In this document: positions 15,480 through 48,462 of the stretch, piece after piece
Position numbering within the stretch: position 1 is the stretch's first letter
Layout of the letters: each line of letters opens with the position of its first letter
From: Candidatus Pacearchaeota archaeon UBA92
Lineage (GTDB): Archaea; Nanobdellota; Nanobdellia; Pacearchaeales; GW2011-AR1
Reading direction: 5' to 3'
DNA: 64,000 nucleotides
Assembly (NCBI GenBank): GCA_002497285.1
Contig: DANJ01000011.1
Location: forward strand, 3,091-67,090
Translations under genes and position numbers: made by a program
The notes under the pieces: model-generated
Told to the model about the DNA's origin: nothing
Databases searched by the model: none
The model's input: only the letters and a program-made list of their open reading frames with translations

Positions 15480-17516
15480 CTAAGAAATATCAAATTCGCC
15501 TAGACTTTTTTGAATAGATTTGTTTCTCAGACTTAAAATAATCATAACAATTATTGCGATGATTCCAATAATTAATACGGCCACAACAATCCAAAAGTAA
15601 ACTCCGAAACTGCTTTTAGTAAAACTGCTAGAACAAATACCCTTGCAACAATCACCATCACTAGCACTTTCAGTCCCAATAGAACATTCCTGATTGACTT
15701 GGCAAATCTTTCCTCCAAGCTGACTACAAGTCCTGACTCCAGGAGAAACAACATTGCTACAACTCTGACTTTCTAAAGGCTTAGCAAGATTAACTCCACA
15801 ATTCCTTGAATCTGTACAAAGTCTTGTCTGGCTTCCTGAAACACAAGAACCCCAATCACTGCAACTCCATAATGGAGAGCAACTTCCAGGAACATACTGA
15901 AATTCCTTAACTGCCGAGTGCCTTAAACCTGAAACCTCATAATCTCCTCCTTGCTCGATACAACTAAATTTAGTTGAATTGTTTCCATCGCAAAGAACAA
16001 TCGTCTCCCCACCCTTTGAACAATCATTAGAAATAGAACTTATTGAATTAATTTCTTCGTCTTTTACACAAACAGCATTACTTACATTACTTAATTTATC
16101 AAGATATACCGTCTTATTCACATCAAGCCCATTGACAATCAAATACCCCTTGCTATCAGAATTTGCTTGTTTTCTAAGATAAAGATTTGTTAAATAGAGA
16201 TCGGTATTATTGAAAGCAAAAGTAAATTCTACTCTTATATCTCCCTCTTCGTCAATTTCAATATTTCTAGTGTCATTAAATTTCTTAGATAAATTGAGGG
16301 GTCTTCCATTTTCATATACTGAAAAGTTAAAATTGGCGTCGACATCGCTCAAATTTCCAATAAACCCATTATCTTCATAATCGCATCTTTCATAAATTAG
16401 ATTAGCAGGTAAATTAGTCACACAAGAATTATCTGAAAGATAACTAATTTCCCTTTTATCTCCCAATAAACAATTGCTTACGTTTGCAACAACTTTAGCT
16501 TCACAAATTGCAATTCCCTGATTATTAACAAAACCTCCTCCACTCCTTGAAACCGAAAAAGCAGTTACATTTTGAGTTTGATTATAAGACACAAAATTTG
16601 TACCTGAAGTCACAAATAAATGATTACCGTCGATTCCTAAACCCTCAAAATCAGATCCAAAACCAAAAAGAATTGGAATCGTTGCAACCCCTCCATTAGC
16701 AGGAAACTTTATCTGGAGATGGCTCCCTATAACTTCAAAAGTGAAGTGATGCGACTTATAAGGAAGCATACTACTATAGTTTAACTTAATTTCTCCATTT
16801 TCCCAATAAGCAGTAATTTCTTGAACAGCTCTGTCATATAACGAACCATCTTTGTCTAGAACTTTAAAGACATACTTATCAGCAGGTAATTCAGTCCCTA
16901 TCGGAAGAGTAATTTTATTATGCAAATCATCAAAAACAACTCTGAAAGGAGCCCCTGCACTGCCAAAACTAAACCTTCCCCATTTATTCTCTCCCAAAAC
17001 AAACAATTCATCAACAGATAAATCAATATTTCCGAAAGCACAAACATTTCCAGCAATCACATTTTCACAGACTGCATTATTGCTTGCGAGATTTGTTATC
17101 TTGACAACATCAGCAGTACCGTTATTGCTGAAATTAGCATTTAGAAAATAACTTTCTCTTGTCGTAGAACACGCTCCAGAATTACATCCTAAACTACAAT
17201 CATAAGTTCTATACGCATAAGTTTTATTATCTCCAATAGCGCACCCATAATCTATAACTCTGCTTGAATTAAAACAGACATCTGCAAGTTCAAGATTTTT
17301 CCCATAATTATAATTACTACTCACTACAGTTCCTTGGGTTGAAGGATAAATCCCTCCATCATTATCGCTACATGTTCCGGCAGAATTGTCTGGAGGGGAA
17401 AGAAAAGTTCCTTCAGCAACACTCTTGAAAGGCATTATAGGATTAAAAGAAAGAAGAAATAACGCAATAAGTAAAATTCCCAAAACCAAAAAATAATCCA
17501 ATTCCCTCTCTTCCAT
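15480..17516 (-). CDS. Cys-rich secreted/surface protein with C-terminal TM anchor
   Basis: N-terminal TM, a Cys-rich ectodomain and a C-terminal TM (VYFWIVVAVLIIGIIAIIVMIILSL). A TSR-like block, CSPLWSCSDWGSCVSGSQTRLCTDSRNCG, is present. Confidence 0.6.
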   Translation of the reverse strand: MEERELDYFLVLGILLIALFLLSFNPIMPFKSVAEGTFLSPPDNSAGTCSDNDGGIYPSTQGTVVSSNYNYGKNLELADVCFNSSRVIDYGCAIGDNKTYAYRTYDCSLGCNSGACSTTRESYFLNANFSNNGTADVVKITNLASNNAVCENVIAGNVCAFGNIDLSVDELFVLGENKWGRFSFGSAGAPFRVVFDDLHNKITLPIGTELPADKYVFKVLDKDGSLYDRAVQEITAYWENGEIKLNYSSMLPYKSHHFTFEVIGSHLQIKFPANGGVATIPILFGFGSDFEGLGIDGNHLFVTSGTNFVSYNQTQNVTAFSVSRSGGGFVNNQGIAICEAKVVANVSNCLLGDKREISYLSDNSCVTNLPANLIYERCDYEDNGFIGNLSDVDANFNFSVYENGRPLNLSKKFNDTRNIEIDEEGDIRVEFTFAFNNTDLYLTNLYLRKQANSDSKGYLIVNGLDVNKTVYLDKLSNVSNAVCVKDEEINSISSISNDCSKGGETIVLCDGNNSTKFSCIEQGGDYEVSGLRHSAVKEFQYVPGSCSPLWSCSDWGSCVSGSQTRLCTDSRNCGVNLAKPLESQSCSNVVSPGVRTCSQLGGKICQVNQECSIGTESASDGDCCKGICSSSFTKSSFGVYFWIVVAVLIIGIIAIIVMIILSLRNKSIQKSLGEFDIS

Positions 17517-31466: not shown

Positions 31467-31946
31467 TTAGAAGGTATTATAGACCTTAATCGCTTTATTC
31501 AATTGAAATTCACAGTTGCCCCAATCAATATATTTACAAATATCCCTTGGATCAATAAATTTTCTTTCTAAAATTTCCCCGATTGCAGGGTCTTCGGTTT
31601 GATTATTAATTTTATCTACAAAAGCTGTATATCTTAATAAATAATGAATCTTTGATCCATCCCTTGGTATGACTTTTATGTAACCAACTCTTTTGATATT
31701 TTTTATTTTTAAATCTGCTTCTTCTTGTACTTCCCTTTTCAGAGTATCTTCAAAGGATTTATCTTCTTTTTCGGGTGTCCCTCCCGGAATTCCCCACATA
31801 CCATTATATTTAATCAAACAAACTTTCCCTTCTTTATCAAATATAAATGCATAAACTTGTGTTACATTATCCAAATTTTCAAAGTTTGTGTTATCATGCC
31901 ATTCATTATCTGAAATCCTTCCCTTAAAATCTACTCTAAATTTCAT
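31467..31946 (-). CDS. NUDIX hydrolase
   Basis: Nudix box GIPGGTPEKEDKSFEDTLKREVQEEADL. Confidence 0.85.
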   Translation of the reverse strand: MKFRVDFKGRISDNEWHDNTNFENLDNVTQVYAFIFDKEGKVCLIKYNGMWGIPGGTPEKEDKSFEDTLKREVQEEADLKIKNIKRVGYIKVIPRDGSKIHYLLRYTAFVDKINNQTEDPAIGEILERKFIDPRDICKYIDWGNCEFQLNKAIKVYNTF

Positions 31947-32027: not shown

Positions 32028-32972
32028 ATGAGATATGTGAGAAATTTAAATTCGATTAATAAAAATGATGTTGAAATAGCGGGTGGAAAGGGCGCTTCAT
32101 TAGGAGAGCTAATTAACTCTAATATAGAAGTACCTGGAGGATTTGTTATACTCTCAAATGCATTTGAAGAATTTATTAAAGAAACCGATACAACAATAGA
32201 AATTGACTCAGAATTGGATTCTATAAATCTAAAAGATATTAATAGCATAAATAGGGCTTCAGAAAGGATAAATTTTGCAATTGTTTCTAAGGATATCCCT
32301 AAAAAGATTAAAGATGAAATAATAAAATCTTATAATCAATTAAAATCAAAATATGTTGCTGTTAGGAGTTCAGCGACTTCAGAAGATGGCGCTAATTCAG
32401 CATGGGCAGGACAATTAGATACTTATCTTAATACTTCAAAAGAAAACCTAATAATGAATATTAAAAGATGTTGGGCCTCTCTGTTCACTCCAAGAGCATT
32501 AATATATCGTCTTGAAAAAAAATTAAAAAAAGAAAAAATATCTGTGGCTGTAGTTATTCAAAAAATGATAGATAGCAGTGAATCTGGAGTTGCATTTTCT
32601 GTCCACCCAATTACAAAAGACAAAAACCAATTAGTAATTGAGGCATGTTTTGGGTTAGGAGATGCTATAGTTTCTGGAGAGATCATCCCCGATAGTTATG
32701 TTTTAAATAAGAGTGACTGGAGAATTTTAGATATAAATATCAACAATAAAGTAAAAGGATTGTTTAAGGAAAAGAATGGTGAAAATAAATGGAAACAATT
32801 AAAGAAAAAGGGGGGAAATCAGGTTTTGACAAAAAAAGAAATTGTAGTATTGGGCAAATTAGTAAAAATGATTGAAGAGCATTATAAATTCCCGGTAGAT
32901 ATTGAATGGGCAAAAAGGAAGGATAAATTTTATATTCTTCAAAGTAGACCAATTACGACTTTATTGGATTAA
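32028..32972 (+). CDS. PEP synthase/PPDK N-terminal ATP-grasp (nucleotide-binding) domain, stand-alone
   Basis: GGKGASLGELINSNIEVPGGFVI, VAVRSSATSEDGANSAWAGQLDTYLN, VAVVIQKMIDSSESGVAFSVHP, DIEWAKRKDKFYILQSRPIT. Confidence 0.85.
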   Translation: MRYVRNLNSINKNDVEIAGGKGASLGELINSNIEVPGGFVILSNAFEEFIKETDTTIEIDSELDSINLKDINSINRASERINFAIVSKDIPKKIKDEIIKSYNQLKSKYVAVRSSATSEDGANSAWAGQLDTYLNTSKENLIMNIKRCWASLFTPRALIYRLEKKLKKEKISVAVVIQKMIDSSESGVAFSVHPITKDKNQLVIEACFGLGDAIVSGEIIPDSYVLNKSDWRILDININNKVKGLFKEKNGENKWKQLKKKGGNQVLTKKEIVVLGKLVKMIEEHYKFPVDIEWAKRKDKFYILQSRPITTLLD

Positions 32973-33002
32973 CTTTTTAAATCTGTTTGTGTTATCCTTG
33001 TT

Positions 33003-34082
33003 ATGAAATTAGAGATATTTAAAGCAGGAAAAATATTTAACCCAATTAAGGGAACAAAAAACAAACCAGTACTCCAACATAAAAAGATAAAGGTGACAGT
33101 TCCCGCAAGATTAAATACAATGTGTTTTGATTTAAAAACACTAACTAAGCCTAAAAAGAAATTTATTTATAATGCTGGGGAACTTGCTTTCTCAGTAAAT
33201 GTAAATACTTATGCAAAATTAATAATTACAAAAAATGATAATGGTTCTGTTTTGCTTTCTAAAAACACAAAAAGAAAATCGATAGTTAAACATGCAGCAT
33301 TAATGATGAAAAATGCTCTTAAAATAAATGATTTGTTTTTAATTGAAGCAAACAATGTATATGACTATCCTCACGCTGGTCTTGGATCTTCATCTTCATT
33401 AATTAGTGCAGTTTGTATAGCCATCAATGAGGCCTATGGTAAACCATTAAGCCCAAGACAATTAACACTATTTATTGCTCAAAATCATGGAGAAGAAATT
33501 GAATCAGATGATGAAAGATTAATTCATGTCCAGTGTAATGGTGGTTCTCCTTCTGTAGCCCTATATTATGGAGGTATGCAGATAATTGCAGGAGAATCAA
33601 ATATGATCTTTAGAGAGGAATTTCCTGAAGAATATACATTTGTTTTTGGAATACCTAAGATGTATAAAAAGTGTGATGCTCAATGCTTAATGGCAATCGA
33701 AAAAACTCAATTCCCAAAAATGCTAAAATCGAGTAAAGATTTCTCAAAAGAGATTGCTTGGAAAGTTTTACATGAACTTATTCCTTCAATAATGAATAAA
33801 GATATGAAATCTATCGGAGACATATTACAATATTATAGATTTAATACCGGGAGTTTAGTAATAGATTCAAGAACATGGAAAGGATTATATTCTTTAGTAA
33901 AATCATTGATGAAGTATAGAAATGATGCAACCCCCATAATCTCTGTTTCATCTTGTGGTCCTGCAATATATATTTTAACAAAAAATCCAAAGATGATAGA
34001 AAAAATTTTAAAAGATAAAAAAATGATTACATTCACAGCTAAACCAAATAATAAAGGTTATTCAATCTTATATAATTTTTAA
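33003..34082 (+). CDS. GHMP-kinase-superfamily enzyme, beta-RFAP-synthase-like
   Basis: P-loop-like PHAGLGSSSSLISAVCIAINEAYG. The N-terminal VTVPARLNTMCFDL resembles the PSRLH start of beta-ribofuranosylaminobenzene-5'-phosphate synthases rather than that of classical kinases. Confidence 0.55.
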   Translation: MKLEIFKAGKIFNPIKGTKNKPVLQHKKIKVTVPARLNTMCFDLKTLTKPKKKFIYNAGELAFSVNVNTYAKLIITKNDNGSVLLSKNTKRKSIVKHAALMMKNALKINDLFLIEANNVYDYPHAGLGSSSSLISAVCIAINEAYGKPLSPRQLTLFIAQNHGEEIESDDERLIHVQCNGGSPSVALYYGGMQIIAGESNMIFREEFPEEYTFVFGIPKMYKKCDAQCLMAIEKTQFPKMLKSSKDFSKEIAWKVLHELIPSIMNKDMKSIGDILQYYRFNTGSLVIDSRTWKGLYSLVKSLMKYRNDATPIISVSSCGPAIYILTKNPKMIEKILKDKKMITFTAKPNNKGYSILYNF

Positions 34083-35192
34083 TAATTCTTCGTAACTTTT
34101 AAGATATTCTGGATAAAAATAAATTGTATAAGTATAACCCTCCTCTCTTTTTATTGAGTGGATTCTAAATTTTATTTCGATATCTTTTGGGAGCCTTTTC
34201 TTTAAAATTATACAAACCATCGGCATAGAAGGGGTTTCAAGATATTTGATATCTTTTTCATTTAATCTTTTAATAAATTTATTTTTATTTGAGATAATTT
34301 TCATCGCTCTTTTCTTAAATCCTTTTTTGGATAAATATTCTGTATTTGCCCAAATAATTGCAGGCAATATTCCAGACCTTGATCCTATAAGTGTGTCGTC
34401 AAAAATTTTAACATATTCAGTATTACTACCAATATTATCTTGCAAACCCTTTCTACACAAAAAAATTCCTGAGGGGTAATAAAGGAAACCATATTTATGA
34501 TAATCAAAGGTTAATGATTTAACAAAAGAATTTCCAAAGTCTGAATATTTATTTTTATTTAGAAATGGGATAAAAAATCCTCCAACAGCAGCATCAAGGT
34601 GCAAAAAACATGGTTTTTTATACTCTTTGATAAATTCGGATATTGATTCTATATTGTCTATTATTCCAGTTGAAGTATGCCCTAAGGTTCCAACTATAAT
34701 TAAAGGAGATTCAATATTTTTTGTTGCTTCCTTAAGTTGAGTTTTATCAAGGGGTTTGTTCCAAAATTTAGCTTTTGTTTTTATTATTTTTAAATCAAGC
34801 AATCTTGCTGCTTTATCTAAAGAATAATGGCCCTCACTATGAGAAATAATAATGGGCCTGCCTTTCTTTTTAAGATATTCTCTTCCTATCCATAATGCCA
34901 TAATATTTCCTTCGGTTGAACCACTATTAATGTATCCATCAAGGTTAGAACCATGGAACCAATTAGAGATTTTTTTTATAACCTTATTCTCAAGTTCTCT
35001 ACAACTATCTTGAGAAAACTTCATCCTCGTAGTAGTGCCAATATTATTTGGGTTTAATTTTAATAATTGTTTTATTTCTTTCTTAAAATAATTTTGAGGT
35101 GTGGGAGGTTGAGGAATTCCGATTCTAAGTAAGGAAGTTTCTTTTTCTCTTTTTATTACCTTTTTTAATTTGTTTTTAATTTGTTTTATCAT
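34068..35192 (-). CDS. PLP-dependent group II amino-acid decarboxylase (MfnA-like)
   Basis: SGSTEGNIMALWIGREY, HLDAAVGGFFIPF, and SLTFDYHKYGFLYYPSGIFLCRK (PLP lysine in DxHK). Confidence 0.75.
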   Translation of the reverse strand: MIKQIKNKLKKVIKREKETSLLRIGIPQPPTPQNYFKKEIKQLLKLNPNNIGTTTRMKFSQDSCRELENKVIKKISNWFHGSNLDGYINSGSTEGNIMALWIGREYLKKKGRPIIISHSEGHYSLDKAARLLDLKIIKTKAKFWNKPLDKTQLKEATKNIESPLIIVGTLGHTSTGIIDNIESISEFIKEYKKPCFLHLDAAVGGFFIPFLNKNKYSDFGNSFVKSLTFDYHKYGFLYYPSGIFLCRKGLQDNIGSNTEYVKIFDDTLIGSRSGILPAIIWANTEYLSKKGFKKRAMKIISNKNKFIKRLNEKDIKYLETPSMPMVCIILKKRLPKDIEIKFRIHSIKREEGYTYTIYFYPEYLKSYEELLKII

Positions 35193-36748
35193 AGTCCTAA
35201 ACTTATATACTGAACACCTTTTTTACTTATTATAAAAAGAACAGGTATTGTTAAATCTTCTCTTTGTGTTTTTTTCAATAGATTAGATAATTTATCGATA
35301 TCATTCTCAAAGACTTTAGTATATTTTTTTGGAAAATCTCCCACTATTTCCCCCATTTCATATATTAAATTGTAGTCTGGAACATAATCTCTTGGCAGAA
35401 GTTTAAGTGATTTCCCTTCTTCCCTCATAACAAATGGTTCTTCAGGATTCTTTGATATTGTAATAATCACTTTATTCTTAAAATTATTTTTATCAATCAA
35501 AAAAGAACCATAATATAAAACGTCCTTTCTTGAGGGGCTTAACCTAACAATATATATTTTATTTGGTTTCTTATTTTTAATCATAAATTTTTTTATGTTA
35601 TTATAGTCTCTTGAAAATAAGTGATCTGTATTAATTATATCTCCCTCTTCATCTCTTATAGTTATGCTCCAAATCTCTTCTTTCTTTTTCATAAAATGAT
35701 TTGGATTAAATTCCGATGGATTCCTATATATTTTTACTGGTAACAATTTGTCTGGATATAAATATTTTAAAATTTTAATCCCATCCCATCTTGATAACAA
35801 CTTATTTTCTTTAAAGGTATCACTAACTGATTTATTAATTGTATATCTTGGTTTCCAAGAAACATATTTTTTTGCTTTATCAATACCATATATACGATTT
35901 CTTGATAAACTTATTATGTCTTCTTTTAAAAGGGAAGGTTTCTTATTTGATTCGTTATATTCTTTCTGTTGTTTTTGAGCAATTCTGAATAATTCTCTTA
36001 AAGTCGCAGATTTATCTATTCTTTTATCAAATATATTTGCAACCAGATTTAGATAATCTTTTTGTGATGTAAATCCAGAAGCGATATTAAAATCTTCATT
36101 TTTAATTTCTAAATTTTTAATAATTTTCATAATAAAATTTGATAAATCATTTTGATGAATAAAAGAAAAATTATTACTCCCATCACCAAACATTATAGCT
36201 TTATCTTTTTTTATTGCTTCAATAAATCTATTGAATTTATTTTTAAAATATAATCCAAATATAATTGGAAATCTAACTATAACAAAATCTATGTCCGACT
36301 TTTTTAAAATATTTTCTGCTTTTAATTTATAATTTCCATAGTAACTAGTAGGAATTTTGTTCGAATTTTCAAAGATAATTTTAGATTTATAATTTCCATA
36401 TACTGCCGATGATGAACAAAATATTATTCTAATATTTTTCTTTTTCTTTTTCAAATAACTAACTAAATTTTCCAATGTCTTATAATTAATTTTGGAAGAT
36501 TCTTCATTTAAAAATTCTGCTTTTCCTATAGTAAATATGATGTCAGAAATATTTTTTATTTTATCAAGTTTATTTAGATCTTCATTAATTATAAAATTAA
36601 TTTTTATTAATTGTTCATAACACTCCGGATTTTGAGGATATTTTTTATAATAAGTACCAATCAGCTCAAAATCATAATTGGTTAACGTTTCAGAAATAGA
36701 TTGAGCAACTTTACTAGATGCGCCAATAATGATGATTTTTCCTCTCAT
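35189..36748 (-). CDS. NAD-dependent epimerase/dehydratase (SDR) fused to an uncharacterised ~200-aa C-terminal domain
   Basis: KIIIIGASSKVAQS, CSSSAVYGNYK (S...YxxxK), VRFPIIFG. The C-terminal half has no motif I recognise. Confidence 0.6.
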   Translation of the reverse strand: MRGKIIIIGASSKVAQSISETLTNYDFELIGTYYKKYPQNPECYEQLIKINFIINEDLNKLDKIKNISDIIFTIGKAEFLNEESSKINYKTLENLVSYLKKKKKNIRIIFCSSSAVYGNYKSKIIFENSNKIPTSYYGNYKLKAENILKKSDIDFVIVRFPIIFGLYFKNKFNRFIEAIKKDKAIMFGDGSNNFSFIHQNDLSNFIMKIIKNLEIKNEDFNIASGFTSQKDYLNLVANIFDKRIDKSATLRELFRIAQKQQKEYNESNKKPSLLKEDIISLSRNRIYGIDKAKKYVSWKPRYTINKSVSDTFKENKLLSRWDGIKILKYLYPDKLLPVKIYRNPSEFNPNHFMKKKEEIWSITIRDEEGDIINTDHLFSRDYNNIKKFMIKNKKPNKIYIVRLSPSRKDVLYYGSFLIDKNNFKNKVIITISKNPEEPFVMREEGKSLKLLPRDYVPDYNLIYEMGEIVGDFPKKYTKVFENDIDKLSNLLKKTQREDLTIPVLFIISKKGVQYISLGL

Positions 36749-37836
36749 TTTCGTAGGTCGACAATATGTCTTAATTTGTGAGAGCTTGTTTTTGGAACCT
36801 CAATTTTATTTTGAAAGATAAATTCCTTCTTAGCGAAAATAAATGAAAGTTCTTTGATGATATCCTTTTCTTTATCTTTAAATTCAGATGGAAGAATAAA
36901 TTCAACATAATCTCTATTCTCTTTTGTTTTAAAATTAACAATAAATTCATTAGTATATTTTGATAAAGTATCTTCTATTTTTGTTTTTGATGTAAGCATT
37001 CCTTGCAATTTTATAAGGTCATCATCTCTTCCTGTAACTGAAAATTCACTTATTGAACCATCATCATTATATTTGACTTTTTCTAGAACATCTTTAGTAT
37101 TATATCTTATTATTTTTGTAGAACTATTATTTAAATCAGTTATTGCTAATTCTAAATTTTTATTTATCTCTACTGCCTCTACATATATCCCCTCATTAAT
37201 TACTTTTATTAATTTTGGATCTCCTTTTTTAGAAACTCCAAGGGCAGGACATTCTGTTAAACCAAAATGATTTACAACTTCAACACCCAAGTCTTTAAAT
37301 CGTGAAATATATGAATCTAATAACATTTCCCCTGCTACAAGAACTTTTTTTGGCATAATTTTCGGATTAATTTTATTTAAAACCTCAAGTAAACCAAGAG
37401 CATAGCTTGGAACTGAGAACCATACTGTTGGTTTCACCTTTAAAATAACTTCCATTATTTTTTCCTTGGGATATGTATTTGGAGCGCCTAATGGCAATAT
37501 TGATATGCCATCCAATAAACAAGCTCGTTCATACATACTGCCAGGAACATAATTTCCATATGCGAAAAGATTCAAAACAATATCTTTATTTGATACCCCC
37601 GATAGTTTTATCGATTTTCTTGTTCTGTTAATAAATCCTTCTACAGCTTTGTTAGAGTAAAAAACATAAAGAGCTTTTCCGGTTGATCCACTTGTAATTC
37701 TTAGTTCAAGAAAATTTTTAGGAACTATAAATGCCGATAGGTCTTTTTTCGTACTAATTTTAATCTTTTTCCAATCTTCAATAGATTTAATTTTATCTTC
37801 TCCAACTAAATCATTCATTTTTTTTATTATTTTCAT
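36745..37836 (-). CDS. adenylate-forming ligase, PaaK/CapK/coenzyme-F390-synthetase family
   Basis: TSGSTGKALYVFYS AMP-binding motif. The C-terminal SSHKLRHIVDLRK resembles the PaaK-type SGKxxRxxDxR ending. Confidence 0.65.
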   Translation of the reverse strand: MKIIKKMNDLVGEDKIKSIEDWKKIKISTKKDLSAFIVPKNFLELRITSGSTGKALYVFYSNKAVEGFINRTRKSIKLSGVSNKDIVLNLFAYGNYVPGSMYERACLLDGISILPLGAPNTYPKEKIMEVILKVKPTVWFSVPSYALGLLEVLNKINPKIMPKKVLVAGEMLLDSYISRFKDLGVEVVNHFGLTECPALGVSKKGDPKLIKVINEGIYVEAVEINKNLELAITDLNNSSTKIIRYNTKDVLEKVKYNDDGSISEFSVTGRDDDLIKLQGMLTSKTKIEDTLSKYTNEFIVNFKTKENRDYVEFILPSEFKDKEKDIIKELSFIFAKKEFIFQNKIEVPKTSSHKLRHIVDLRK

Positions 37837-37887
37837 AGTATTTATTTGGAAAGTATATTTTAAAAGCTTTCTAAACTTATTTTATTC

Positions 37888-38553
37888 ATGAATAAATCAA
37901 AAAATAATAAAGAAATTTGGAATAAGTTCTATAAAAAAAGTTCAAAGTATATATACTGACCGTCTGAAGAAATATTTACTTTTTCTGAAAAATATTTAGG
38001 AAACCTTAAGGGCAAAAAGGTTCTTGATATTGGGTGTGGGGCTGGAAGGCATTTATTGATGTTTGATTATAGGGGATGTATTACCTTTGGAATCGATAGT
38101 TCGAAAGAGGCTGTATCAACATCTAAAAAATTCTTGAAAAAGTGGAATGTTAATTCAGAAATAAGGTTGGCTAGTTCCACTAATATCCCCTATAATGATA
38201 ATTCATTTGATATTATTCTTCTTTGGGATATTTTTCATTACCTCTCAAAAAGAGATCAAGAAAAAACTATTGAAGAAATTATGCGAGTATCAAAAAATGG
38301 TGCATGGGTTATATTTTCACTTAGATCAAAAAATGATTCTAGATATAGGATAGGAAAAGAAATGAGAAAGAATACTTATTTACAAGATAAACCAGGAAAG
38401 AGAGATATTGTGATAGAATATTGGAGCAAAAAAGAAGCGGAAAGTTTTTTTAGATTAGATAATTTATTGATTGGAGAGAAAATTATTGCCCCCATTGGTA
38501 GATATAATGTAAAAAGTGCTCATTGGATTCTAGCTGGGAAAATTAACAAATAA
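37888..38553 (+). pseudogene. class I SAM-dependent methyltransferase interrupted by one in-frame TGA (37957-37959)
   Basis: ATG at 37888 is in frame with ORF 38056-38553. Motif I VLDIGCGAGRH (38020-38052) lies between the TGA and the first possible restart, so any restart product lacks the SAM-binding loop. Confidence 0.7.
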
Positions 38554-38587
38554 ATAACTTTAAAAATGTAACTTGGTATTTCATTTT

Positions 38588-39487
38588 ATGGAAATAAATA
38601 AAATATTGAAAAATATCTCCAGAGATGTAGCCAAGGTACAACACGAATCAGGCGTTTTATCACAATGGCCAATAAATTCAGTAGAGGCAATGTATTATTC
38701 TGGCCCTTTTTTAATCCCAGAAGTAGGGAAAAATTTAATGAGTTGGAAGAATGATCCAAAAAGTTTATTTGAAAAAGGATTGATGCCCGGAAAACTTTCA
38801 GGATTAATTTTTTATTTTTTAAATGAAAAGGCAAAAGAGATGATGGGAGAAGAGAATCATAAAAATCTATTAATGGGAATTTTATCAAAAATCATGCTAT
38901 TTAAAAAAGAAAATTATTTTACTGATTATACCTCCAAATCATGGATGCCTGAATGGGATTTGGATGCTAATCCAAAAAAAGTAGATGTAAAAAAATTAGT
39001 ATTTTTACTCGATAACTTAACAGAAATGATTAATCCTATTTTTAGATCTAATGGAGTACAATTGTTTTTTGATGATAACAATGTTTATCGTTATTATTAT
39101 AGATTAGAATTAAACAAGAAAATAATTATTGTATCTCCAAAACAAGGTATGAAAATTGATTTTTTTGAACATATTATTGAACCTGAAAATCTTGATCATT
39201 CTCAAGTATTTATTGAAAACGGGGGGGAAATTATCGAAGGAGATTCGAATATTTTATTTGAAGAAGTAAAAAATAAAATTAAAAAATTAAAAAATTCTAA
39301 AGAGTTCAATAGGGAATATGTTATTAACCAAATTTTTGATGCTTTTGATTTTGATATTCCAGAAGCACAAAAAGGATTTCTTAAAACACCCTTTCCTGAA
39401 GAAATAGTTAAATTTTATATGAAAACATGTGAGATTCCAGAAGATAAACTTAGTCAAGGAATATATCATATTTTAGGAGGTTCATAA
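38588..39487 (+). CDS. hypothetical protein (candidate substrate-binding partner of the split dikinase)
   Basis: ~300-aa ORF (first ATG at 38588, TTG at 38573). Its stop abuts the start of the swivel-domain gene (TAAATG). No motif recognised. Confidence 0.5.
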   Translation: MEINKILKNISRDVAKVQHESGVLSQWPINSVEAMYYSGPFLIPEVGKNLMSWKNDPKSLFEKGLMPGKLSGLIFYFLNEKAKEMMGEENHKNLLMGILSKIMLFKKENYFTDYTSKSWMPEWDLDANPKKVDVKKLVFLLDNLTEMINPIFRSNGVQLFFDDNNVYRYYYRLELNKKIIIVSPKQGMKIDFFEHIIEPENLDHSQVFIENGGEIIEGDSNILFEEVKNKIKKLKNSKEFNREYVINQIFDAFDFDIPEAQKGFLKTPFPEEIVKFYMKTCEIPEDKLSQGIYHILGGS

Positions 39488-39808
39488 ATGATACTCAAAG
39501 GCATTCCTGCTTCTGAAGGAGAATTTGAAGGAACTCTCAAGATTTTCTCAAAAGAGAAAGAATTTAATAAAAATGATATTCTTGTAGCTATCTCAACCTC
39601 TCCCGAAATGAGTGCAGAGATGTTAAATGCTGGAGCAGTTCTTACAGAGTATGGAGGATTGTTATCTCATGCTTCAATATTTTGCAGGGAGATTAAAAAA
39701 CCATGTGTTGTTGGAATAAAAGATTTATTAAACGTAGTTTCTGATGGTATGAAAGCCAAAATTAATGGTAAAAATGGTATTGTTGAAATTAGCCCAAATG
39801 AAGAATAA
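39488..39808 (+). CDS. PEP-utilising enzyme mobile (swivelling phosphohistidine) domain, stand-alone
   Basis: ILVAISTSPEMSAEMLNAGAVLTEYGGLLSHASIFCREIKKPCVVGI, with the catalytic His in GGLLSHAS. Confidence 0.8.
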   Translation: MILKGIPASEGEFEGTLKIFSKEKEFNKNDILVAISTSPEMSAEMLNAGAVLTEYGGLLSHASIFCREIKKPCVVGIKDLLNVVSDGMKAKINGKNGIVEISPNEE

Positions 39809-40853
39809 AAAGTGGTATTCAAGACTTTTAAAAAGAGTGAACTTATCAACTACATATGAAATATTTAATCTCTTTAAAACTTCGAAATTTGTTGTATTGA
39901 AACAAGAAGAATTTAAAAATCATTTCTATAGAGAGATAGCCTTTATACTGGGCCCGTATGTTTTATGTTTTGCAAAGAATAAGACTATGAAAAATGAATT
40001 AGTTTTAAATTGGACAAGTAAAAATCCCCAAATCCCTTTTGGAAAAATTTTCAAAAACAAAAATACTGAAAGAAAACTGATTGAAAAGACGATCAATAGT
40101 AGAAAATATATTGTTTCAGGAGAAATTAATGCTACTATTGAAGAAAAATTTAGAGGTTTAGAGATTCTTAAGGTTTCGGCCTTTTGCGGAAATGTCATGA
40201 ATTCTAAGGAGGATATTAATATTTCAAAAAAATTTATTTCAAAAAATAAATCCGATTTATATTTATTTCCTGAATCATATCCTTTCTCAAGGATAGTTTT
40301 TAATTCAAAAGGATTTCCGGAAGGCACAATATTTGGCAGGTATGGTAACCATGGACCTGAAACATACTTTATGAAAAAAAATCCGGTTCAAATAAGCAAG
40401 TCTACAGCTTTTGCTGATGAAAAAAAAATAATGAAAAAGGGAAGATTTCCAAAAATAATTGATCACAAAGGAATAAAAGTGGCAGTAATAATCTGTTATG
40501 ATTTATTAAATCCAAGAATCTCCCATTATTTGGCTAATAAAGATATAGACATTGTTTTTATTCCTTCCATGATTCCTTCCAATGATGTAGAAAAATGGAA
40601 AAAATTTCTTTATGTTAGGGGGCAGGAAATACAATGTCCGTTAATTCTAGCAAGCAATAAAGACAAAAGGAATATTTGTATCCCAAAAATATTATATTAT
40701 GATCCTATTGAAGAAAAAGTTAATGAGTATAATAAACCTCAAGTTTTTGAAATTCCATTTGGAAAATTGAAGATAAAAGAATCCCCAAGAGTACATTGGA
40801 GCTGGTTATTGAAGAATAAGGTGTTTGGTCCTTTTTCAAAAGATTTTGATTAA
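39798..40853 (+). CDS. carbon-nitrogen hydrolase (nitrilase superfamily)-like protein
   Basis: LYLFPESYPF (Glu motif) and GIKVAVIICYDLLNP (Cys motif). Alternative starts are at 39765 and 39774. Confidence 0.5.
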   Translation: MKNKKWYSRLLKRVNLSTTYEIFNLFKTSKFVVLKQEEFKNHFYREIAFILGPYVLCFAKNKTMKNELVLNWTSKNPQIPFGKIFKNKNTERKLIEKTINSRKYIVSGEINATIEEKFRGLEILKVSAFCGNVMNSKEDINISKKFISKNKSDLYLFPESYPFSRIVFNSKGFPEGTIFGRYGNHGPETYFMKKNPVQISKSTAFADEKKIMKKGRFPKIIDHKGIKVAVIICYDLLNPRISHYLANKDIDIVFIPSMIPSNDVEKWKKFLYVRGQEIQCPLILASNKDKRNICIPKILYYDPIEEKVNEYNKPQVFEIPFGKLKIKESPRVHWSWLLKNKVFGPFSKDFD

Positions 40854-41476
40854 TTTTTTGCTTTATCTATGAACTTTTTAACTTTTAAGAGGTCTCTAAA
40901 ACCCATGTTGTTTCTAAGGGAAGATTCAGCATCTACAGCATATGGTTTAACTTTACTAATGGCTCCTTTAACATTTGATTCATTCAAACCTCCTGCCAAG
41001 ATTATGGGTATATTGTTATTTTTTACAATTTTTTTACTTAGGTTCCAATCATGAACTTTACCCGTTCCTCCGAGGTGATGTCCAAGTTTTGAATCAAGTA
41101 AAATATAATCTGCCTCACAATATAACTCTATCTTTGATTCATCATTTTTATTAGTAATATGCACAACAGGTATGATTTTTATATCACAATTTTTTGATAA
41201 ATATTCTACATTTGTTTTAGTAGGATTCAACAATTGAATTCCCCAGGGAGAAATATATTCTATCAAATTCAATAATTTAATTGGATCATCTTCAATAGTT
41301 AAAATAATAAATTTTCCTTTATTATTATGGGATATGATCTTTTTAGCTTCGGTTGGATTTAAACTTAAATTAGTCTCAGGAATCTCTATAAGTAATCCTA
41401 AAAAATCAGCCCCATATTCAATAGCCTTTTTTGCTTCATTGCTAGAATGTATTCCACAAATTTTTACTTTTACCAT
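40850..41476 (-). CDS. trpF: phosphoribosylanthranilate isomerase (TrpF) family
   Basis: MVKVKICGIHSSNEAKKAIEYGADFLGLL, GGTGKVHDWNL, PIILAGGLNESNV, AVDAESSLR. The start is taken at the internal Met; the ORF-track extension to 41665 is non-homologous. Confidence 0.8.
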   Translation of the reverse strand: MVKVKICGIHSSNEAKKAIEYGADFLGLLIEIPETNLSLNPTEAKKIISHNNKGKFIILTIEDDPIKLLNLIEYISPWGIQLLNPTKTNVEYLSKNCDIKIIPVVHITNKNDESKIELYCEADYILLDSKLGHHLGGTGKVHDWNLSKKIVKNNNIPIILAGGLNESNVKGAISKVKPYAVDAESSLRNNMGFRDLLKVKKFIDKAKN

Positions 41477-41553: not shown

Positions 41554-42123
41554 ATGGCAAAAAGAATAGAATTTGTTTGTACAGCAAATAATGGGAAAAG
41601 TCCGGTAGCATTAGCTGTAGCCAGAAATTATGTTGGAAAAAATGAAAACTATGCATTGTCTTCAACAGGAACCATGGTTGATGTGATTACAAGGTCTGAT
41701 GGCAATCAACTTTCTAAATACTTAAACCAATTTTTAAGTGATGCCTATGAGCGAAATATTTTGTCTACAAAAGAAGTTGAGAATTTAGAAAAGAATCCTA
41801 GAGGAATATTAGAAAAATTTCTCAGAAACGAAAGAACAAATAGGGACAGATATCTTACTGGAATAGGTTTAGAATTTGTAGATTATCCTAATCAAACACA
41901 TGCAATTGAGGGTGGAGGGATAATTGCTTGTATTGGAGATTCAAATTTAAAGAGAGTTAGGGAGATATATAACTGTTCAGATCATTCACCAAGAATCATA
42001 AATCTAATGGGTGAAGAATATCCTGATGTAAGTAATCAATGGGTGTTAACTTATGATGAGTTTAGAGATGTAGCAAGAGTGGTGAGAGAAAATACGATTA
42101 GATTGATTGAGTTAGATAAATAA
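41554..42123 (+). CDS. low-molecular-weight phosphatase-like protein with variant P-loop (CX5K)
   Basis: IEFVCTANNGKSPVA compared with the canonical VCxGNxCRS. Confidence 0.4.
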   Translation: MAKRIEFVCTANNGKSPVALAVARNYVGKNENYALSSTGTMVDVITRSDGNQLSKYLNQFLSDAYERNILSTKEVENLEKNPRGILEKFLRNERTNRDRYLTGIGLEFVDYPNQTHAIEGGGIIACIGDSNLKRVREIYNCSDHSPRIINLMGEEYPDVSNQWVLTYDEFRDVARVVRENTIRLIELDK

Positions 42124-45432: not shown

Positions 45433-48400
45433 CTATTCTACATATATTCCAGGTCTTCCGGGTTTTACCTTCCCAGATTTCCCAGAAGGATCATATTTAT
45501 TCTTATCATTAACTGCATACACCTTAACCTTTAATCCCATCTTTTCTCCCAATGCATTCTCATCATAACTCTTCAATTCTTGAGGAAGAACATAAAGATA
45601 AATCTTCTCGGCCTTCCCTCCTTTACCTTCAACCAACTTCAAAATCTGCCCAATGTCATTAACTGTCTTCTCCAATGCCTTATCCGCTTCTTCAATCTTG
45701 TCATCAATTTTCTTCTCATCAAACTCGGGCCAAGTAGATAAGGAAACAAAACCTTTCCCTCCAATCTTACTCCACAATTCCTCGGCAATGTGTGGACAGA
45801 AAAGTCCAAACATTTTCAAAAAACTTTCTAAGTCTTTCTTCCCAGCTCCTTCCTTTTCAATAACTCCAAACAATTCTCTTAATTTTATAACTGCAAGATT
45901 ATACTTCATATTTTCAATATCAATTCCAATTGTCCTTATTCCCTTATTCACATAATGTTCCAATTTCTTACTACTCTTTCCTAACTTCAAATCAGAGAAA
46001 TAATCCCAAACTTTCAAAACAAATCTTAAACTTCCCTGTGCTCCTTCCTCGCTCCAGCTGAAATCCTTATCCGGCCCTGCAACAGATACCAAAAACAATC
46101 GGACTCCATCAACCCCATATTTCTTTGCAGCAATTTCAGGAACAATCACATTTCCCAAGGATTTTGACATCTTTTTCCCATCTTCTCCATAAATGAACCC
46201 CTGTGTGAAAAGCCTTTTTGCTGGTTCTCTTACACTTACCAAACCCAAGTCGCTCAAAAACTTTGTATAAAATCTGAAATAGATGTCATGCATCGTCGCA
46301 TGCTCCTTTCCTCCGATATATAGGTCAATAGGCATCCAGTAATCAGCCTTCTTTTTCTCAAATATTTTATTTTTATTTTTAGAATCCAGATATCTTAAGA
46401 AATACCAGCTGCTGTCAACAAAAGTATCCATCGTGTCAGTCTCTCTCCTTCCCATTTTACCGCACTTCCAGCATTTCACATTTACAAAATTATTATTTCC
46501 TTTCAAGGGATTTTCAACACCTTGAAACTTAATATTTTCAGGCAACTTCACTGGCAAATCTTTCTCTCTAACGGGCTGAATTCCGCAATTATCGCAATAG
46601 ATAATTGGAATTGGAGTTCCCCAAAATCTCTGCCTACTTATCAGCCAGTCCCGTAACTTATATGCAACCTTCTTTCTCCCAAGCCCTTTCTCATTCAATG
46701 CAATTGTAATATGTTCCTTTGCCTCTTCAGACGACAAGCCGGAAAATCCCTCGCTATTAATCAACTTGCCATAAACTACATAAGCTTCCTTACTCACATC
46801 ACCTTCAATGACTTGCTTTATCTTTAAACCATACTTCTTAGCAAAATCCCAATCACGGGCATCATGCGCAGGCACACCCATCACAATGCCAGAGCCATAA
46901 TCAGAAACAACAAAATTCCCTGTCCAGATTGGTATTCTTTCCCCTGTCAGAGGATGCTTAGCATAACTGCCTGTAAATACGCCTTCCTTATTCATCCTAT
47001 CCCTGTCTTCATCTTTCGTACTCTTGACCTTCTTCAAAAACGCCTCAACTTCCCTCTTCCTGTCAGACGTAACAAGACTCATCAGTTCAGGATGCTGCGC
47101 AGAAACAACTAAAAATGTAGCGCCAAATAAAGTGTCAACTCGCGTTGTAAATACTTTCCACTTTTTACCAGAAACGATTTCATTTAGTAATTCAGGGAAT
47201 TCTTTTGTCCCCATCTGCCTATCCAAAAAATGTCCTCTTTCATCCAACCTTATTAGTTTAGCACCCAAATCCCTTGCATATTTTTCTGCATTTTCAATCC
47301 TATGCACCTCATCATTCGAAATAAATATTGAAATTTCATCAACATTATCTTTTATCTTTGCATTCAAATTAAAATCGTAAAGCCCAGAATTTAGAACCTT
47401 ATAGGCTTTCTTGTGTTTTCCACCAGGGGCAACTAAAATCAATTTATTGATTTTCTTATTAGTCTCACTTAACCACCGAAGCAAAAAAGCTCCTCCTGCA
47501 GAATGCCCTATTAATATACTTCTCTCATCAATCTGTTTGTTTAGCTTTTCTAGTTCTGCCTTCCACTCATTATACTTAGGTGTGCTTACGTGAGGCATCA
47601 AAGGAACAAAAGTCTTTATTCCTTTTCTTTCTAATTTATCCTTTATCCAAGTTAGCCAATGCCTTTCATTTATAGTCTCTTCTCTACCACTAGCAGCAAA
47701 CCCATGAATAATTATAGCATTAGAAATTTTTTTCTCATCTCCGACCTCAAAATCAACCTCCGTCCCTTCTGACTTCCCGATCCAATTTCTCTGTAAAGTC
47801 TTAATCATCTCAGGCCATTCATCCAGCTTGTCCAAGCCAGAAAGCAATTCATCGGCATAATCCGTAGTCTTTAGAAACCACTGCTCCAATTGTTTTACTT
47901 CAACATTCGTATCTTCATGTCTCCAGCATTTGCCATCAACAACCTGTTCATTCGCCAATACCGTATTGCACTTAGGGCAGAAATTTACGCCCGCTTTCTT
48001 CCTATATGCTAATCCCGATTCAAGCATCTTCAAAAATATCCACTGATCCCATTTATAGTAAGCAGGATCATGGCTCTTCAGCATCCTGTCCCAGTCATAA
48101 GACAGCCCGAAGCCTTTCATCTGTTTTATAAAATTCTTAATGGCCTCATCAGTAAACTTCCTTGGATGGCTCTTGTTTTTTATAGCGGCATTTTCAGCTG
48201 GCAACCCAAAAGAATCAAAGCCCATTGGATGCATTACATTGTATCCTTGCATTCTCTTAAACCTGGCAAAAATATCTCCTATTGTATAGATGAAAGCGTG
48301 CCCCATATGCAACCCAGATCCAGAGGGATAAGGATATTGTTCCAGGACATAAAACTTCTTCTTACCTTTTACATTATCCTTGGCAACAAACGCTTTACCT

Positions 48401-48462
48401 TTCTCCCATTTTCCCTGCCATTTTTTCTCTATTGCCTTAAAATTAATCATCTTCTTAACCAT
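45433..48462 (-). CDS. leuS: leucyl-tRNA synthetase, bacterial type, with inserted YdeN/RBBP9-like serine hydrolase domain
   Basis: PYPSGSGLHMGHAFIYTIGD, MGFDSFGLPAENAAI, Zn motif CPKCNTV...CWRH, CP1 motifs VFTTRVDTLFG and GVPAHDARDWDFAKK, and KMSKS. An extra ~190 aa sits between NWIGKSEGTEVDF and VFTTR. Confidence 0.9.
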   Translation of the reverse strand: MVKKMINFKAIEKKWQGKWEKGKAFVAKDNVKGKKKFYVLEQYPYPSGSGLHMGHAFIYTIGDIFARFKRMQGYNVMHPMGFDSFGLPAENAAIKNKSHPRKFTDEAIKNFIKQMKGFGLSYDWDRMLKSHDPAYYKWDQWIFLKMLESGLAYRKKAGVNFCPKCNTVLANEQVVDGKCWRHEDTNVEVKQLEQWFLKTTDYADELLSGLDKLDEWPEMIKTLQRNWIGKSEGTEVDFEVGDEKKISNAIIIHGFAASGREETINERHWLTWIKDKLERKGIKTFVPLMPHVSTPKYNEWKAELEKLNKQIDERSILIGHSAGGAFLLRWLSETNKKINKLILVAPGGKHKKAYKVLNSGLYDFNLNAKIKDNVDEISIFISNDEVHRIENAEKYARDLGAKLIRLDERGHFLDRQMGTKEFPELLNEIVSGKKWKVFTTRVDTLFGATFLVVSAQHPELMSLVTSDRKREVEAFLKKVKSTKDEDRDRMNKEGVFTGSYAKHPLTGERIPIWTGNFVVSDYGSGIVMGVPAHDARDWDFAKKYGLKIKQVIEGDVSKEAYVVYGKLINSEGFSGLSSEEAKEHITIALNEKGLGRKKVAYKLRDWLISRQRFWGTPIPIIYCDNCGIQPVREKDLPVKLPENIKFQGVENPLKGNNNFVNVKCWKCGKMGRRETDTMDTFVDSSWYFLRYLDSKNKNKIFEKKKADYWMPIDLYIGGKEHATMHDIYFRFYTKFLSDLGLVSVREPAKRLFTQGFIYGEDGKKMSKSLGNVIVPEIAAKKYGVDGVRLFLVSVAGPDKDFSWSEEGAQGSLRFVLKVWDYFSDLKLGKSSKKLEHYVNKGIRTIGIDIENMKYNLAVIKLRELFGVIEKEGAGKKDLESFLKMFGLFCPHIAEELWSKIGGKGFVSLSTWPEFDEKKIDDKIEEADKALEKTVNDIGQILKLVEGKGGKAEKIYLYVLPQELKSYDENALGEKMGLKVKVYAVNDKNKYDPSGKSGKVKPGRPGIYVE
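47161..47733 (-). other. alpha/beta serine-hydrolase domain inserted in LeuRS (about aa 244-434)
   Basis: AIIIHGF, RHWLTWIKDKLERKGIKTFVPLMP, LIGHSAGG (GxSxG), ERGHFLDRQMGTKEFPELL. It is collinear with the product of 48462-49082. Confidence 0.75.

Follow-up and report, generated by a model that had tools for sequence, protein, structure and literature searches.

The stretch of DNA analysed here, 64,000 nucleotides of contig DANJ01000011.1 from Candidatus Pacearchaeota archaeon UBA92 (assembly GCA_002497285.1, positions 3,091 to 67,090 of the forward strand) and referred to as the window, carries an ATP-grasp domain and a phosphohistidine swivel domain of the dikinase type, as known from rifampicin phosphotransferase (RPH) and phosphoenolpyruvate (PEP) synthase, in two separate genes. 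The swivel gene follows directly on a 300-codon open reading frame (ORF), here called ORF300, and the three gene products may act together as a phosphorelay. The positions of the three genes in the window are:

32028-32972, plus strand: stand-alone PPDK_N ATP-grasp subunit of 314 amino acids (aa; Pfam PPDK_N), the proposed ATP-binding phosphodonor
38588-39487, plus strand: ORF300, a protein of apparently new fold and without Pfam, NCBIfam or PDB sequence match, the obligate upstream neighbour of the swivel gene and proposed acceptor-side partner
39488-39808, plus strand: free-standing phosphohistidine swivel protein of 106 aa (Pfam PF00391, PEP-utilizers) with the catalytic His61

The two dikinase domains

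Both domains were matched far beyond chance by E-value. The ATP-grasp ORF aligned with PPDK_N over profile positions 2-311 of 328 (E 4.6e-92) and had no other match. Among PDB sequences it matched the archaeal PEP synthases 8a8e and 9dae, the Listeria RPH entries 5fbs and 5hv6 and HpeI, a stand-alone ATP-grasp subunit (9goj, E 1.4e-46), within a range of E 1e-62 to 1e-46. Its residues K21, R113, T132 and E293 align with K22, R117, T136 and E297 in the ATP site of RPH-Lm, where mutagenesis has assigned the positioning of the ATP phosphates to the first three and the role of a Mg ligand to E297 (PMC4844700). In the swivel protein, PF00391 was matched across all 72 positions (E 3.4e-20), and the closest PDB match by E-value was the C-terminal swivel of Listeria RPH (5fbs 766-865). 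The catalytic-histidine motif of the GGxx(S/C)H type is present: in the alignment of GGLLSH61AS with GGLMTH825GA, His61 takes the place of RPH His825. The protein comprises the swivel domain alone (NCBIfam profile positions 763-863). Judged by their sequences, both domain proteins are complete and stand-alone with intact catalytic residues, as the initial annotation had described them. Scores for known single-chain enzymes stayed far below the NCBIfam cutoffs, with 261 bits for the ATP-grasp plus 55 bits for the swivel on the RPH model (cutoff 999) and 245 plus 35 bits on the PigC/RedH/HapC prodiginine ligase model (cutoff 1300).

The absence of a PEP/pyruvate-binding TIM barrel, also stated in the initial annotation, was confirmed for the whole window. 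When an authentic PEP synthase was split into its three domains for tblastn, exactly one PPDK_N and one swivel were retrieved from the 64 kb, and the TIM-barrel domain of that enzyme (PF02896, PEP-utilizers_C) found no match there.

ATP-grasp relatives in CPR and DPANN genomes

Relatives of the ATP-grasp subunit are numerous. Of 8000 scored candidates, 7884 reached an E-value of 1e-20 or lower to the window protein, and the best 120 were mostly proteins of 310-330 aa from Patescibacteria, Woesearchaeota and Nanoarchaeota. From a scan of species-representative genomes, 80 loci with close PPDK_N relatives (51-92 % identity) were analysed by ORF calling and BLAST; individual loci are given below by L numbers. 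The classical fused order of PPDK_N, a middle domain (X) and swivel, in proteins of about 670-850 aa, was present in 34 loci. Another 18 coded for multi-module proteins with two to five X-swivel units and up to 2388 aa, and the remaining 28 had a stand-alone PPDK_N. Within this last group X-swivel units of about 200-630 aa were encoded by one to five genes of their own within 10 kb in 22 loci, four loci had no X-swivel gene on the available sequence (two of these contigs are short, 3-4 kb), and two, L016 and L017, were of the same cluster type as the window. These two were also the only ones among the 80 with a free swivel of less than 150 aa. PEP-utilizers_C was absent from all 80 loci, its sole match being an unrelated canonical PEP synthase in L012/L013.

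The survey of split and fused homologues proposed with the initial annotation gave a mixture of 34 fused, 18 multi-module and 28 stand-alone forms for the ATP-grasp and exclusively stand-alone forms for the recovered homologues of the swivel protein (20 of 20, 81-113 aa). The suggestion that a three-polypeptide version of this enzyme class would be new seems to hold for only one part of the arrangement: a separate ATP-grasp has been published for PpsAB, CreHI and HpeHI and occurs in 28 of the 80 loci, but the free swivel is rare (2 of 80).

A 350-aa X-swivel protein matched the RPH-type models of NCBIfam from about 70 residues upstream of the swivel onwards, therefore the X domains are similar to the RIF-binding domain of RPH, at least in their C-terminal part. 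In a rough neighbour-joining tree, the ATP-grasps of the candidate phyla radiation (CPR) and of DPANN archaea formed a clade far from canonical PEP synthases, with fused and stand-alone proteins interspersed. The window protein is 52-62 % identical to members of this RPH-like radiation and nests among them, and stand-alone ATP-grasp genes are common there; the swivels of the radiation, in contrast, invariably share a chain with a preceding X domain (about 245, 380 or 525 aa). The closest relatives of the window ATP-grasp occur fused in RPH-like proteins or as parts of two-component sets that include X-swivel proteins, and PEP synthases are not among them.

Two arrangements in this collection deserve mention in their own right. 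Giant proteins with one N-terminal PPDK_N and two to five X-swivel units, up to 2388 aa long, are encoded in L065 (10001-17167), L057 (10001-17053) and L033 (5565-11624), and a stand-alone PPDK_N stands beside arrays of up to five X-swivel genes in L079, L084, L093 and L052. Both look like one ATP-loading module serving many acceptor modules. No description of multi-module or arrayed dikinase-like proteins was found in the literature searched.

ORF300 and its pairing with the swivel gene

ORF300 most likely starts at ATG 38588, as judged from its homologues, which begin there, and would then code for 299 aa. Its stop codon TAA (39485-39487) directly abuts the swivel ATG (39488), forming the TAAATG junction that the initial annotation had pointed out. 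Wherever the sequence continues beyond an ORF300 homologue, as it does in about 20 loci, the swivel gene comes directly after it, either spaced by 0-9 nt or overlapping by 4-11 nt. Adjacency is retained in distant members of the family (about 20-28 % identity) with quite different gene contexts. In L012-L014 a distant pair of ORF300 and swivel follows a radical S-adenosylmethionine (SAM)/SPASM maturase of the anaerobic-sulfatase-maturase/DynA type and a short protein of the short-chain dehydrogenase/reductase (SDR) type. L011, a contig ending at the ORF300 homologue, has the maturase upstream and no SDR. The maturases of these regions (L011 415-2425; L012 826-4465; L014) were matched with E-values of about 1e-55 to 1e-62, below the model cutoffs; the distant pairs are possibly linked to peptide or protein modification. 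In L010, the pair precedes a 430-aa methyltransferase-like protein.

Two further contigs carry the pair in a reduced or altered form. A bacterial contig (L002 9611-11106) has only ORF300 and swivel, together with an upstream 74-aa fragment similar to the pyridoxal phosphate (PLP)-dependent decarboxylase of the cluster described below; it looks like the surviving remnant of a decayed cluster. On the 1.6-kb contig L003 (1-1627), two compensating indels at the TAA-ATG junction yield an in-frame fusion of ORF300 and swivel with a Leu-Lys linker (P0018). ORF300 also contains an in-frame TAG there (128-130). P0018 could be a genuine fusion that is broken, or else the assembly is wrong. On account of the short contig and the TAG it was not counted as a Rosetta-stone fusion.

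An exhaustive profile search in 1.84 billion representative proteins yielded 26 representatives of the ORF300 family. All have 70-343 aa, therefore none is a version fused to an ATP-grasp or a swivel, and no convincing fusion was seen among the 26. Typical members are stand-alone proteins of about 280-306 aa with the motifs QWP...(F/L)LxxLxExxxPxFR(G)...YRxY...FFGHxxxPE, encoded directly upstream of a free swivel gene, and the window ORF fits this description. When 27 sequences from the wider family are aligned, at least 90 % of them have P28, located in the QWP motif, E146, P150, R153, R168, Y170, F193 and E200; H195 is mostly kept. The charged residues could belong to a site that handles phosphate. 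RPH requires an Arg-Glu pair of its acceptor domain for the second phosphotransfer (PMC4844700), a parallel that is an analogy and provides no evidence of homology.

Searches for relatives of ORF300 outside its family were negative. Neither Pfam and NCBIfam (up to E 10) nor the PDB sequences, searched with the single sequence and with the family profile, gave a match. The AlphaFold2 model built on the family alignment is confident (pLDDT 89.4, pTM 0.89) and predicts a helical N-terminal region, a beta-sheet in the centre and helices in the C-terminal part. A Foldseek search with this model retrieved nothing at E 0.001 or lower from the PDB, which includes RPH, PEP synthase, PPDK and EI (best E 0.12), or from BFVD (best E 0.012), with TM-scores normalised by query length of at most about 0.21 in both. 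Against 153 extracted X domains the ORF300 profile reached a best E-value of 0.24 (hmmsearch), and hhalign with eight X-domain family alignments gave probabilities of at most 1.5 %. An X-domain homologue was not found elsewhere in the window either. Kinase/pyrophosphorylases of the PSRP/DUF299 family (PF03618) act on a threonine two residues before the catalytic histidine of their target; ORF300 was rejected as a member, for it had no Pfam match even at E 10 and the swivel has leucine instead of threonine at that position (GGLLSH).

The initial annotation had proposed ORF300 as a detached substrate-binding module and suggested its comparison with the RIF-binding domain of RPH. That comparison by Foldseek failed to return RPH. 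The linkage to the swivel proved universal in about 20 loci, but no kinship to X or RIF-binding domains appeared in hidden Markov model (HMM) searches, hhalign or Foldseek. With no HMM or profile homology to RIF-binding-like domains, ORF300 is, by its sequence and predicted structure, a syntenic partner of the swivel and not a detached copy of a known substrate domain.

Gene cluster and genomic island

The three genes belong to a group whose further members and edge genes in the window are:

31467-31946, minus strand: NUDIX hydrolase at the cluster edge (Pfam NUDIX, E 5.8e-13), also beside PPDK_N in L016, L017, L096, L100, L004 and L005
33003-34082, plus strand: protein of the GHMP kinase superfamily, weakly similar to beta-RFAP synthase (Pfam GHMP_kinases_N, E 1.2e-7; NCBIfam BetaRFA-P_synth, E 2e-14, far under the cutoff), kept in the cluster
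34068-35192, minus strand: group II PLP-dependent decarboxylase, His/Tyr decarboxylase-like (Pfam Pyridoxal_deC, E 1.2e-16; NCBIfam histidine decarboxylase and MfnA, about 1e-49, below the cutoffs)
35189-36748, minus strand: SDR/epimerase-fold protein (Pfam Epimerase, E 2e-18) with an additional C-terminal domain of about 200 aa
36745-37836, minus strand: PaaK-like adenylate-forming enzyme (Pfam AMP-binding, E 4e-11; phenylacetate-CoA ligases in the PDB, about E 2e-17)
37888-38553, plus strand: SAM methyltransferase with an in-frame TGA (37957-37959), a lineage-specific insert
39798-40853, plus strand: CN-hydrolase-like protein (Pfam CN_hydrolase, E 4e-6, residues 207-287)
40850-41476, minus strand: TIM-barrel isomerase similar to phosphoribosylanthranilate isomerase (PRAI, TrpF; Pfam PRAI, E 2e-20; NCBIfam phosphoribosylanthranilate isomerase, E 2e-32, below the cutoff)
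41554-42123, plus strand: protein similar to low-molecular-weight phosphatases (weak Pfam LMWPc match, E 0.0026), kept in L006, L016, L017, L103 and L104
42443-43792, plus strand: DDE/SWIM transposase (Pfam DDE_Tnp_1, E 4.6e-22, and SWIM), with which the low-GC island ends

The GC content is 25-30 % across 32-44 kb, compared with 32-39 % in the adjoining stretches, and this region ends at the transposase. Genes for archaeal TFE, alanyl-tRNA synthetase, a rhomboid protease and BacA flank the island in the window. A set of about 11 genes recurs elsewhere: PPDK_N, GHMP, PLP decarboxylase, SDR, PaaK-like enzyme, ORF300, swivel, CN-hydrolase-like protein, PRAI-like protein, phosphatases and NUDIX hydrolase, the phosphatases being LMWPc-like and in some loci also of the His_Phos_1 type. 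The same cluster with about 90 % protein identity is present in L016, a 57-kb contig of a Candidatus Woesearchaeota metagenome-assembled genome (MAG), and it was also found in the Woesearchaeota locus L017 and in bacteria, where the cluster of L009 adjoins mraZ, rsmH, a penicillin-binding protein and a Mur ligase. The cluster is thus conserved and common to DPANN archaea and CPR bacteria. Its presence in Woesearchaeota MAGs and on a bacterial contig, the low GC content and the terminal transposase indicate a transfer between archaea and bacteria.

Nine cluster loci have sequence to either side, and eight of them contain PPDK_N within the cluster, in front of the GHMP gene in the window, L016, L017, L096 and L007 and behind the phosphatases in L004, L009 and L098. 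Its maintenance inside the cluster at two positions and orientations indicates selection for linkage. The order ORF300, swivel, CN-hydrolase-like gene was the same in all cluster-type loci; in the window the CN-hydrolase-like gene (ATG 39798) overlaps the swivel gene up to its stop codon by 11 nt.

L017 and L096 carry an intact methyltransferase gene, but more distant clusters (L004, L007 and L009) lack it. The position of the TGA is a tryptophan in L016 and L017; the gene of L016 is interrupted by another nonsense codon farther downstream. The methyltransferase gene seems to be accessory and to decay in two close relatives independently of each other, unless the stop codons are sequencing errors.

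Six further proteins of the cluster, namely the GHMP-like protein, the PLP decarboxylase, the SDR, the PaaK-like ligase and the CN-hydrolase-like and PRAI-like proteins, were compared with the 153 X domains and their eight families by hmmsearch and hhalign, and none of them was related. The C-terminal 200 aa of the SDR protein had no match in Pfam or NCBIfam and no profile similarity to X domains, and the GHMP-like and CN-hydrolase-like proteins had no match among PDB sequences. The SDR and the swivel of the window each match one end of NCBIfam NF004520 (PRK05865), an 854-aa 'sugar epimerase family protein' with an N-terminal SDR/epimerase and a C-terminal swivel. An SDR also stands beside the ORF300-swivel pair in the radical-SAM branch (L012), which together with NF004520 suggests a recurrent association of SDR and swivel. 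An equivalence of ORF300, or of the C-terminal 200 aa of the SDR, with the middle of NF004520 was not supported; only the epimerase and the swivel ends match.

Comparison with known systems and a proposed phosphorelay

The closest precedents are the small-molecule dikinases HpeHI, CreHI and phenylphosphate synthase PpsAB, two-component systems in which an ATP-grasp subunit presents ATP to a subunit of substrate-binding and swivel domain; in the case of HpeHI the complex of the two is only transient (PMC12167813). The window shares with them a separate PPDK_N polypeptide, presumed to act in trans as it does there, a catalytic histidine on a PF00391 swivel and the lack of a PEP/pyruvate TIM barrel. 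Their swivel, however, is fused to a RIF-binding-like domain in one subunit of about 600 aa, whereas that of the window is free, and its obligate neighbour is the 299-aa protein without detectable kinship to such a domain. RPH itself (PDB 5FBS/5HV1; PMC4844700), which the same work places in 'a large unexplored group' of enzymes, has an ATP-grasp of about equal length with the same ATP-site residues and a corresponding swivel including His825; a reaction like that of RPH, from ATP to AMP, Pi and a phospho-product via phosphohistidine, is presumed for the window proteins. In RPH, a RIF-binding domain of 430 aa lies between the two within one chain of about 865 aa, in contrast to three genes 6.5 kb apart that include no such domain. 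A RIF-binding-like substrate domain placed covalently ahead of the swivel, a trait of RPH-like and two-component enzymes, is missing from the window. YvkC-type flavonoid phosphate synthetase is grouped with RPH by the same architecture. The prodiginine ligases PigC, RedH and HapC share an N-terminal PPDK_N, a C-terminal swivel and ATP-dependent phosphoryl activation in a biosynthesis, but are single chains of about 880 aa with a central domain of their own. PEP synthase and PPDK have homologous ATP-grasp and swivel domains; there the swivel is central and tethered on both sides, and the PEP/pyruvate TIM barrel lacking in the window is present. As far as we found, the new element is an untethered swivel with a partner of apparently new fold in a conserved archaeal and bacterial cluster, the detached ATP-grasp being already known and common. 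No description of a free-standing swivel protein with a non-homologous partner was found in the literature searched, the coverage of which was incomplete. The rph-like genes of CPR bacteria have so far been tallied as rifampicin-resistance genes (PMC8651080).

We propose that the three genes code for a three-polypeptide relative of the small-molecule dikinases RPH, PpsAB and HpeHI, a phosphorelay that forms part of a conserved pathway encoded by about 11 genes, and give this reading about an even chance. Following the family chemistry and the conserved residues, the 314-aa ATP-grasp would bind ATP. His61 of the free swivel would attack the beta-phosphate, and the resulting pyrophosphohistidine would lose the gamma-phosphate, leaving AMP, Pi and phospho-His61. 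In place of a tethered swivelling movement, the phosphorylated swivel protein would diffuse and dock on ORF300, as the strict gene linkage suggests. ORF300 would replace the RIF-binding-like domain, present the acceptor at a putative Glu/Arg site (E146, R153, R168, E200) and allow the transfer of the phosphate. The acceptor may be a pathway intermediate, perhaps a tyrosine- or histidine-derived amine or an aryl-acid conjugate, a speculation based on the neighbouring PLP decarboxylase, PaaK-like ligase, GHMP/beta-RFAP-synthase-like, PRAI-like, SDR and amidase-like proteins and phosphatases; phosphorylation might activate or mask it. The same neighbours suggest, again as speculation, phosphoribosyl chemistry for this amino-acid-derived amine or aryl-acid conjugate, and the radical-SAM/SPASM neighbour hints at a peptide acceptor in the distant branch. 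The entire cluster, present in DPANN archaea as well as in CPR bacteria, would be a mobile island passed on horizontally.

Several observations carry this proposal. The window lacks a TIM barrel and an X domain and contains only one swivel and one ATP-grasp, therefore the two dikinase parts have only each other as local partners. The identity of the two domains with their intact catalytic residues, the retention of PPDK_N within the cluster in eight of nine loci, the RPH-like kinship of the ATP-grasp, the match of X-swivel proteins to RPH models beyond the swivel and the conserved Glu and Arg residues of ORF300 speak for it as well. Synteny makes a functional partnership of ORF300 and swivel still the best reading, and HpeHI, PpsAB and CreHI offer, by analogy, a biochemical precedent for an ATP-grasp acting in trans (PMC12167813). 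Other observations weigh against it. ORF300 has no detectable sequence, profile or fold kinship to any known acceptor or substrate domain. L001 has the full cluster without a PPDK_N within 10 kb; the only PPDK_N found on this 985-kb contig is the 2388-aa multi-module protein (L065) 78 kb away. In the distant branch, radical-SAM/SPASM maturases accompany ORF300 and swivel and a dedicated ATP-grasp is lacking, and the cluster-associated ATP-grasps are not monophyletic in the rough tree. Of little weight is the AlphaFold prediction for P0018 (ORF300 residues of about 121-299, Leu-Lys and swivel), which placed no swivel on the truncated ORF300: the parts folded confidently, with a linker pLDDT of 36 and a pTM of 0.53 for a protein with incomplete ORF300, an unpaired alignment and a swivel that is mobile by nature. 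Formally, a confident ORF300 model without PDB fold match and a docking prediction of this weak kind come close to the unrelated, non-interacting fold that the initial annotation had named as evidence against its own proposal.

Alternative explanations

The strongest competitor, though improbable in our estimate, assigns ORF300 a role other than that of the acceptor module. It could be an alternative loader or adaptor, as a new phosphodonor enzyme or a scaffold, or an enzyme that needs the swivel, with the phosphate passing on to another cluster enzyme such as the CN-hydrolase-like protein or to a peptide. Such a role would fit the pairs without a nearby stand-alone ATP-grasp (L001, L010, L012-L014), the position of the pair behind a radical-SAM/SPASM peptide or protein maturase in the distant branch, the translational coupling of the CN-hydrolase-like gene to the swivel in all cluster-type loci and the failure of AlphaFold to predict docking. 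On the other hand, neither a nucleotide-binding motif nor a fold match was detected in ORF300; it is ORF300 and not the CN-hydrolase-like gene that accompanies the swivel in all contexts, and an ATP-grasp is present within the cluster in eight of nine complete loci.

Less probable still is that ATP-grasp and swivel of the cluster are not dedicated partners, the former serving X-swivel proteins encoded elsewhere and the latter being charged by any ATP-grasp or by a PEP-dependent enzyme. Stand-alone ATP-grasps commonly serve several partners, as the 22 of 28 loci with one to five X-swivel genes nearby illustrate, and the scattered phylogeny of the cluster ATP-grasps as well as the cluster without ATP-grasp in L001 point in the same direction. 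Yet the window contains no X-swivel gene that could be served, and PPDK_N has stayed linked to the cluster despite rearrangement, both in Woesearchaeota and in lineages of the CPR.

An ordinary PEP synthase or PPDK in pieces with a TIM barrel encoded elsewhere is essentially refuted: the PEP synthase models of NCBIfam were indeed the top matches by E-value, but with 317 bits against a cutoff of 598, and PEP-utilizers_C is missing from the window and all 80 related loci, the swivel is closest in the PDB to that of RPH, and the ATP-grasp clade lies far from canonical PEP synthases. Decaying fragments of a once-fused RPH-like gene with ORF300 as unrelated filler, an idea encouraged by the pseudogenised methyltransferase and the transposase of the island, are as good as refuted by conservation, i.e., by intact reading frames, conserved catalytic residues and the same three-gene arrangement in more than 20 loci of Archaea and Bacteria at 43-92 % identity.

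The three-polypeptide phosphorelay can be taken a step further, to a view that we regard as rather doubtful. The free swivel might be a diffusible phosphohistidine carrier similar to HPr that couples the CPR/DPANN ATP-grasp to a new acceptor fold, ORF300, in an ATP-driven relay resembling the PEP-dependent phosphotransferase system (PTS), for the modification of small molecules or, in the radical-SAM branch, of peptides. In the PTS, a functional analogue (PMC13099321), a small free phosphohistidine carrier likewise moves between separate proteins, and the swivel of EI is homologous to PF00391; the donor there is PEP via the EI C-domain, in contrast to ATP via the ATP-grasp as presumed for the window, in which no HPr or EII homologues were identified. 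RPH has been argued to descend from PTS-like multi-protein relays (PMC13099321), and the window system might then be a living example of the multi-protein state that preceded the fused RPH-type dikinases.

Tethering is regarded as central to catalysis in PPDK, PEP synthase and RPH by current structural work. If the relay exists, the mechanism of the swivelling domain works without a covalent tether on either side, and a new acceptor fold is added to a class of kinases with mostly unidentified substrates. Ultra-small archaea and bacteria, whose genomes are minimal, share this cluster of about 11 genes, which points to a metabolite or a modification worth keeping and exchanging. The dikinase step, with its small, soluble proteins and a simple 32P transfer assay, makes the pathway accessible to biochemistry.

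Other features of the window

Outside the island, two large ORFs on the minus strand, 58805-62818 (1337 aa) and 15480-17516 (678 aa), had no Pfam match at E 1e-5. A minus-strand ORF of 2810 aa (2185-10617) contains ConA-like/Laminin-G, Big_13 and Y_Y_Y domains and a match to the Nup98-type S59 autopeptidase (E 2e-6) just below the Pfam cutoff; it is probably a giant surface protein. In the leucyl-tRNA synthetase (45433-48462, minus strand, 1009 aa), the catalytic core and the editing domain are separated by the insertion of an alpha/beta Ser_hydrolase domain (PF06821, residues 250-425, E 2e-19).

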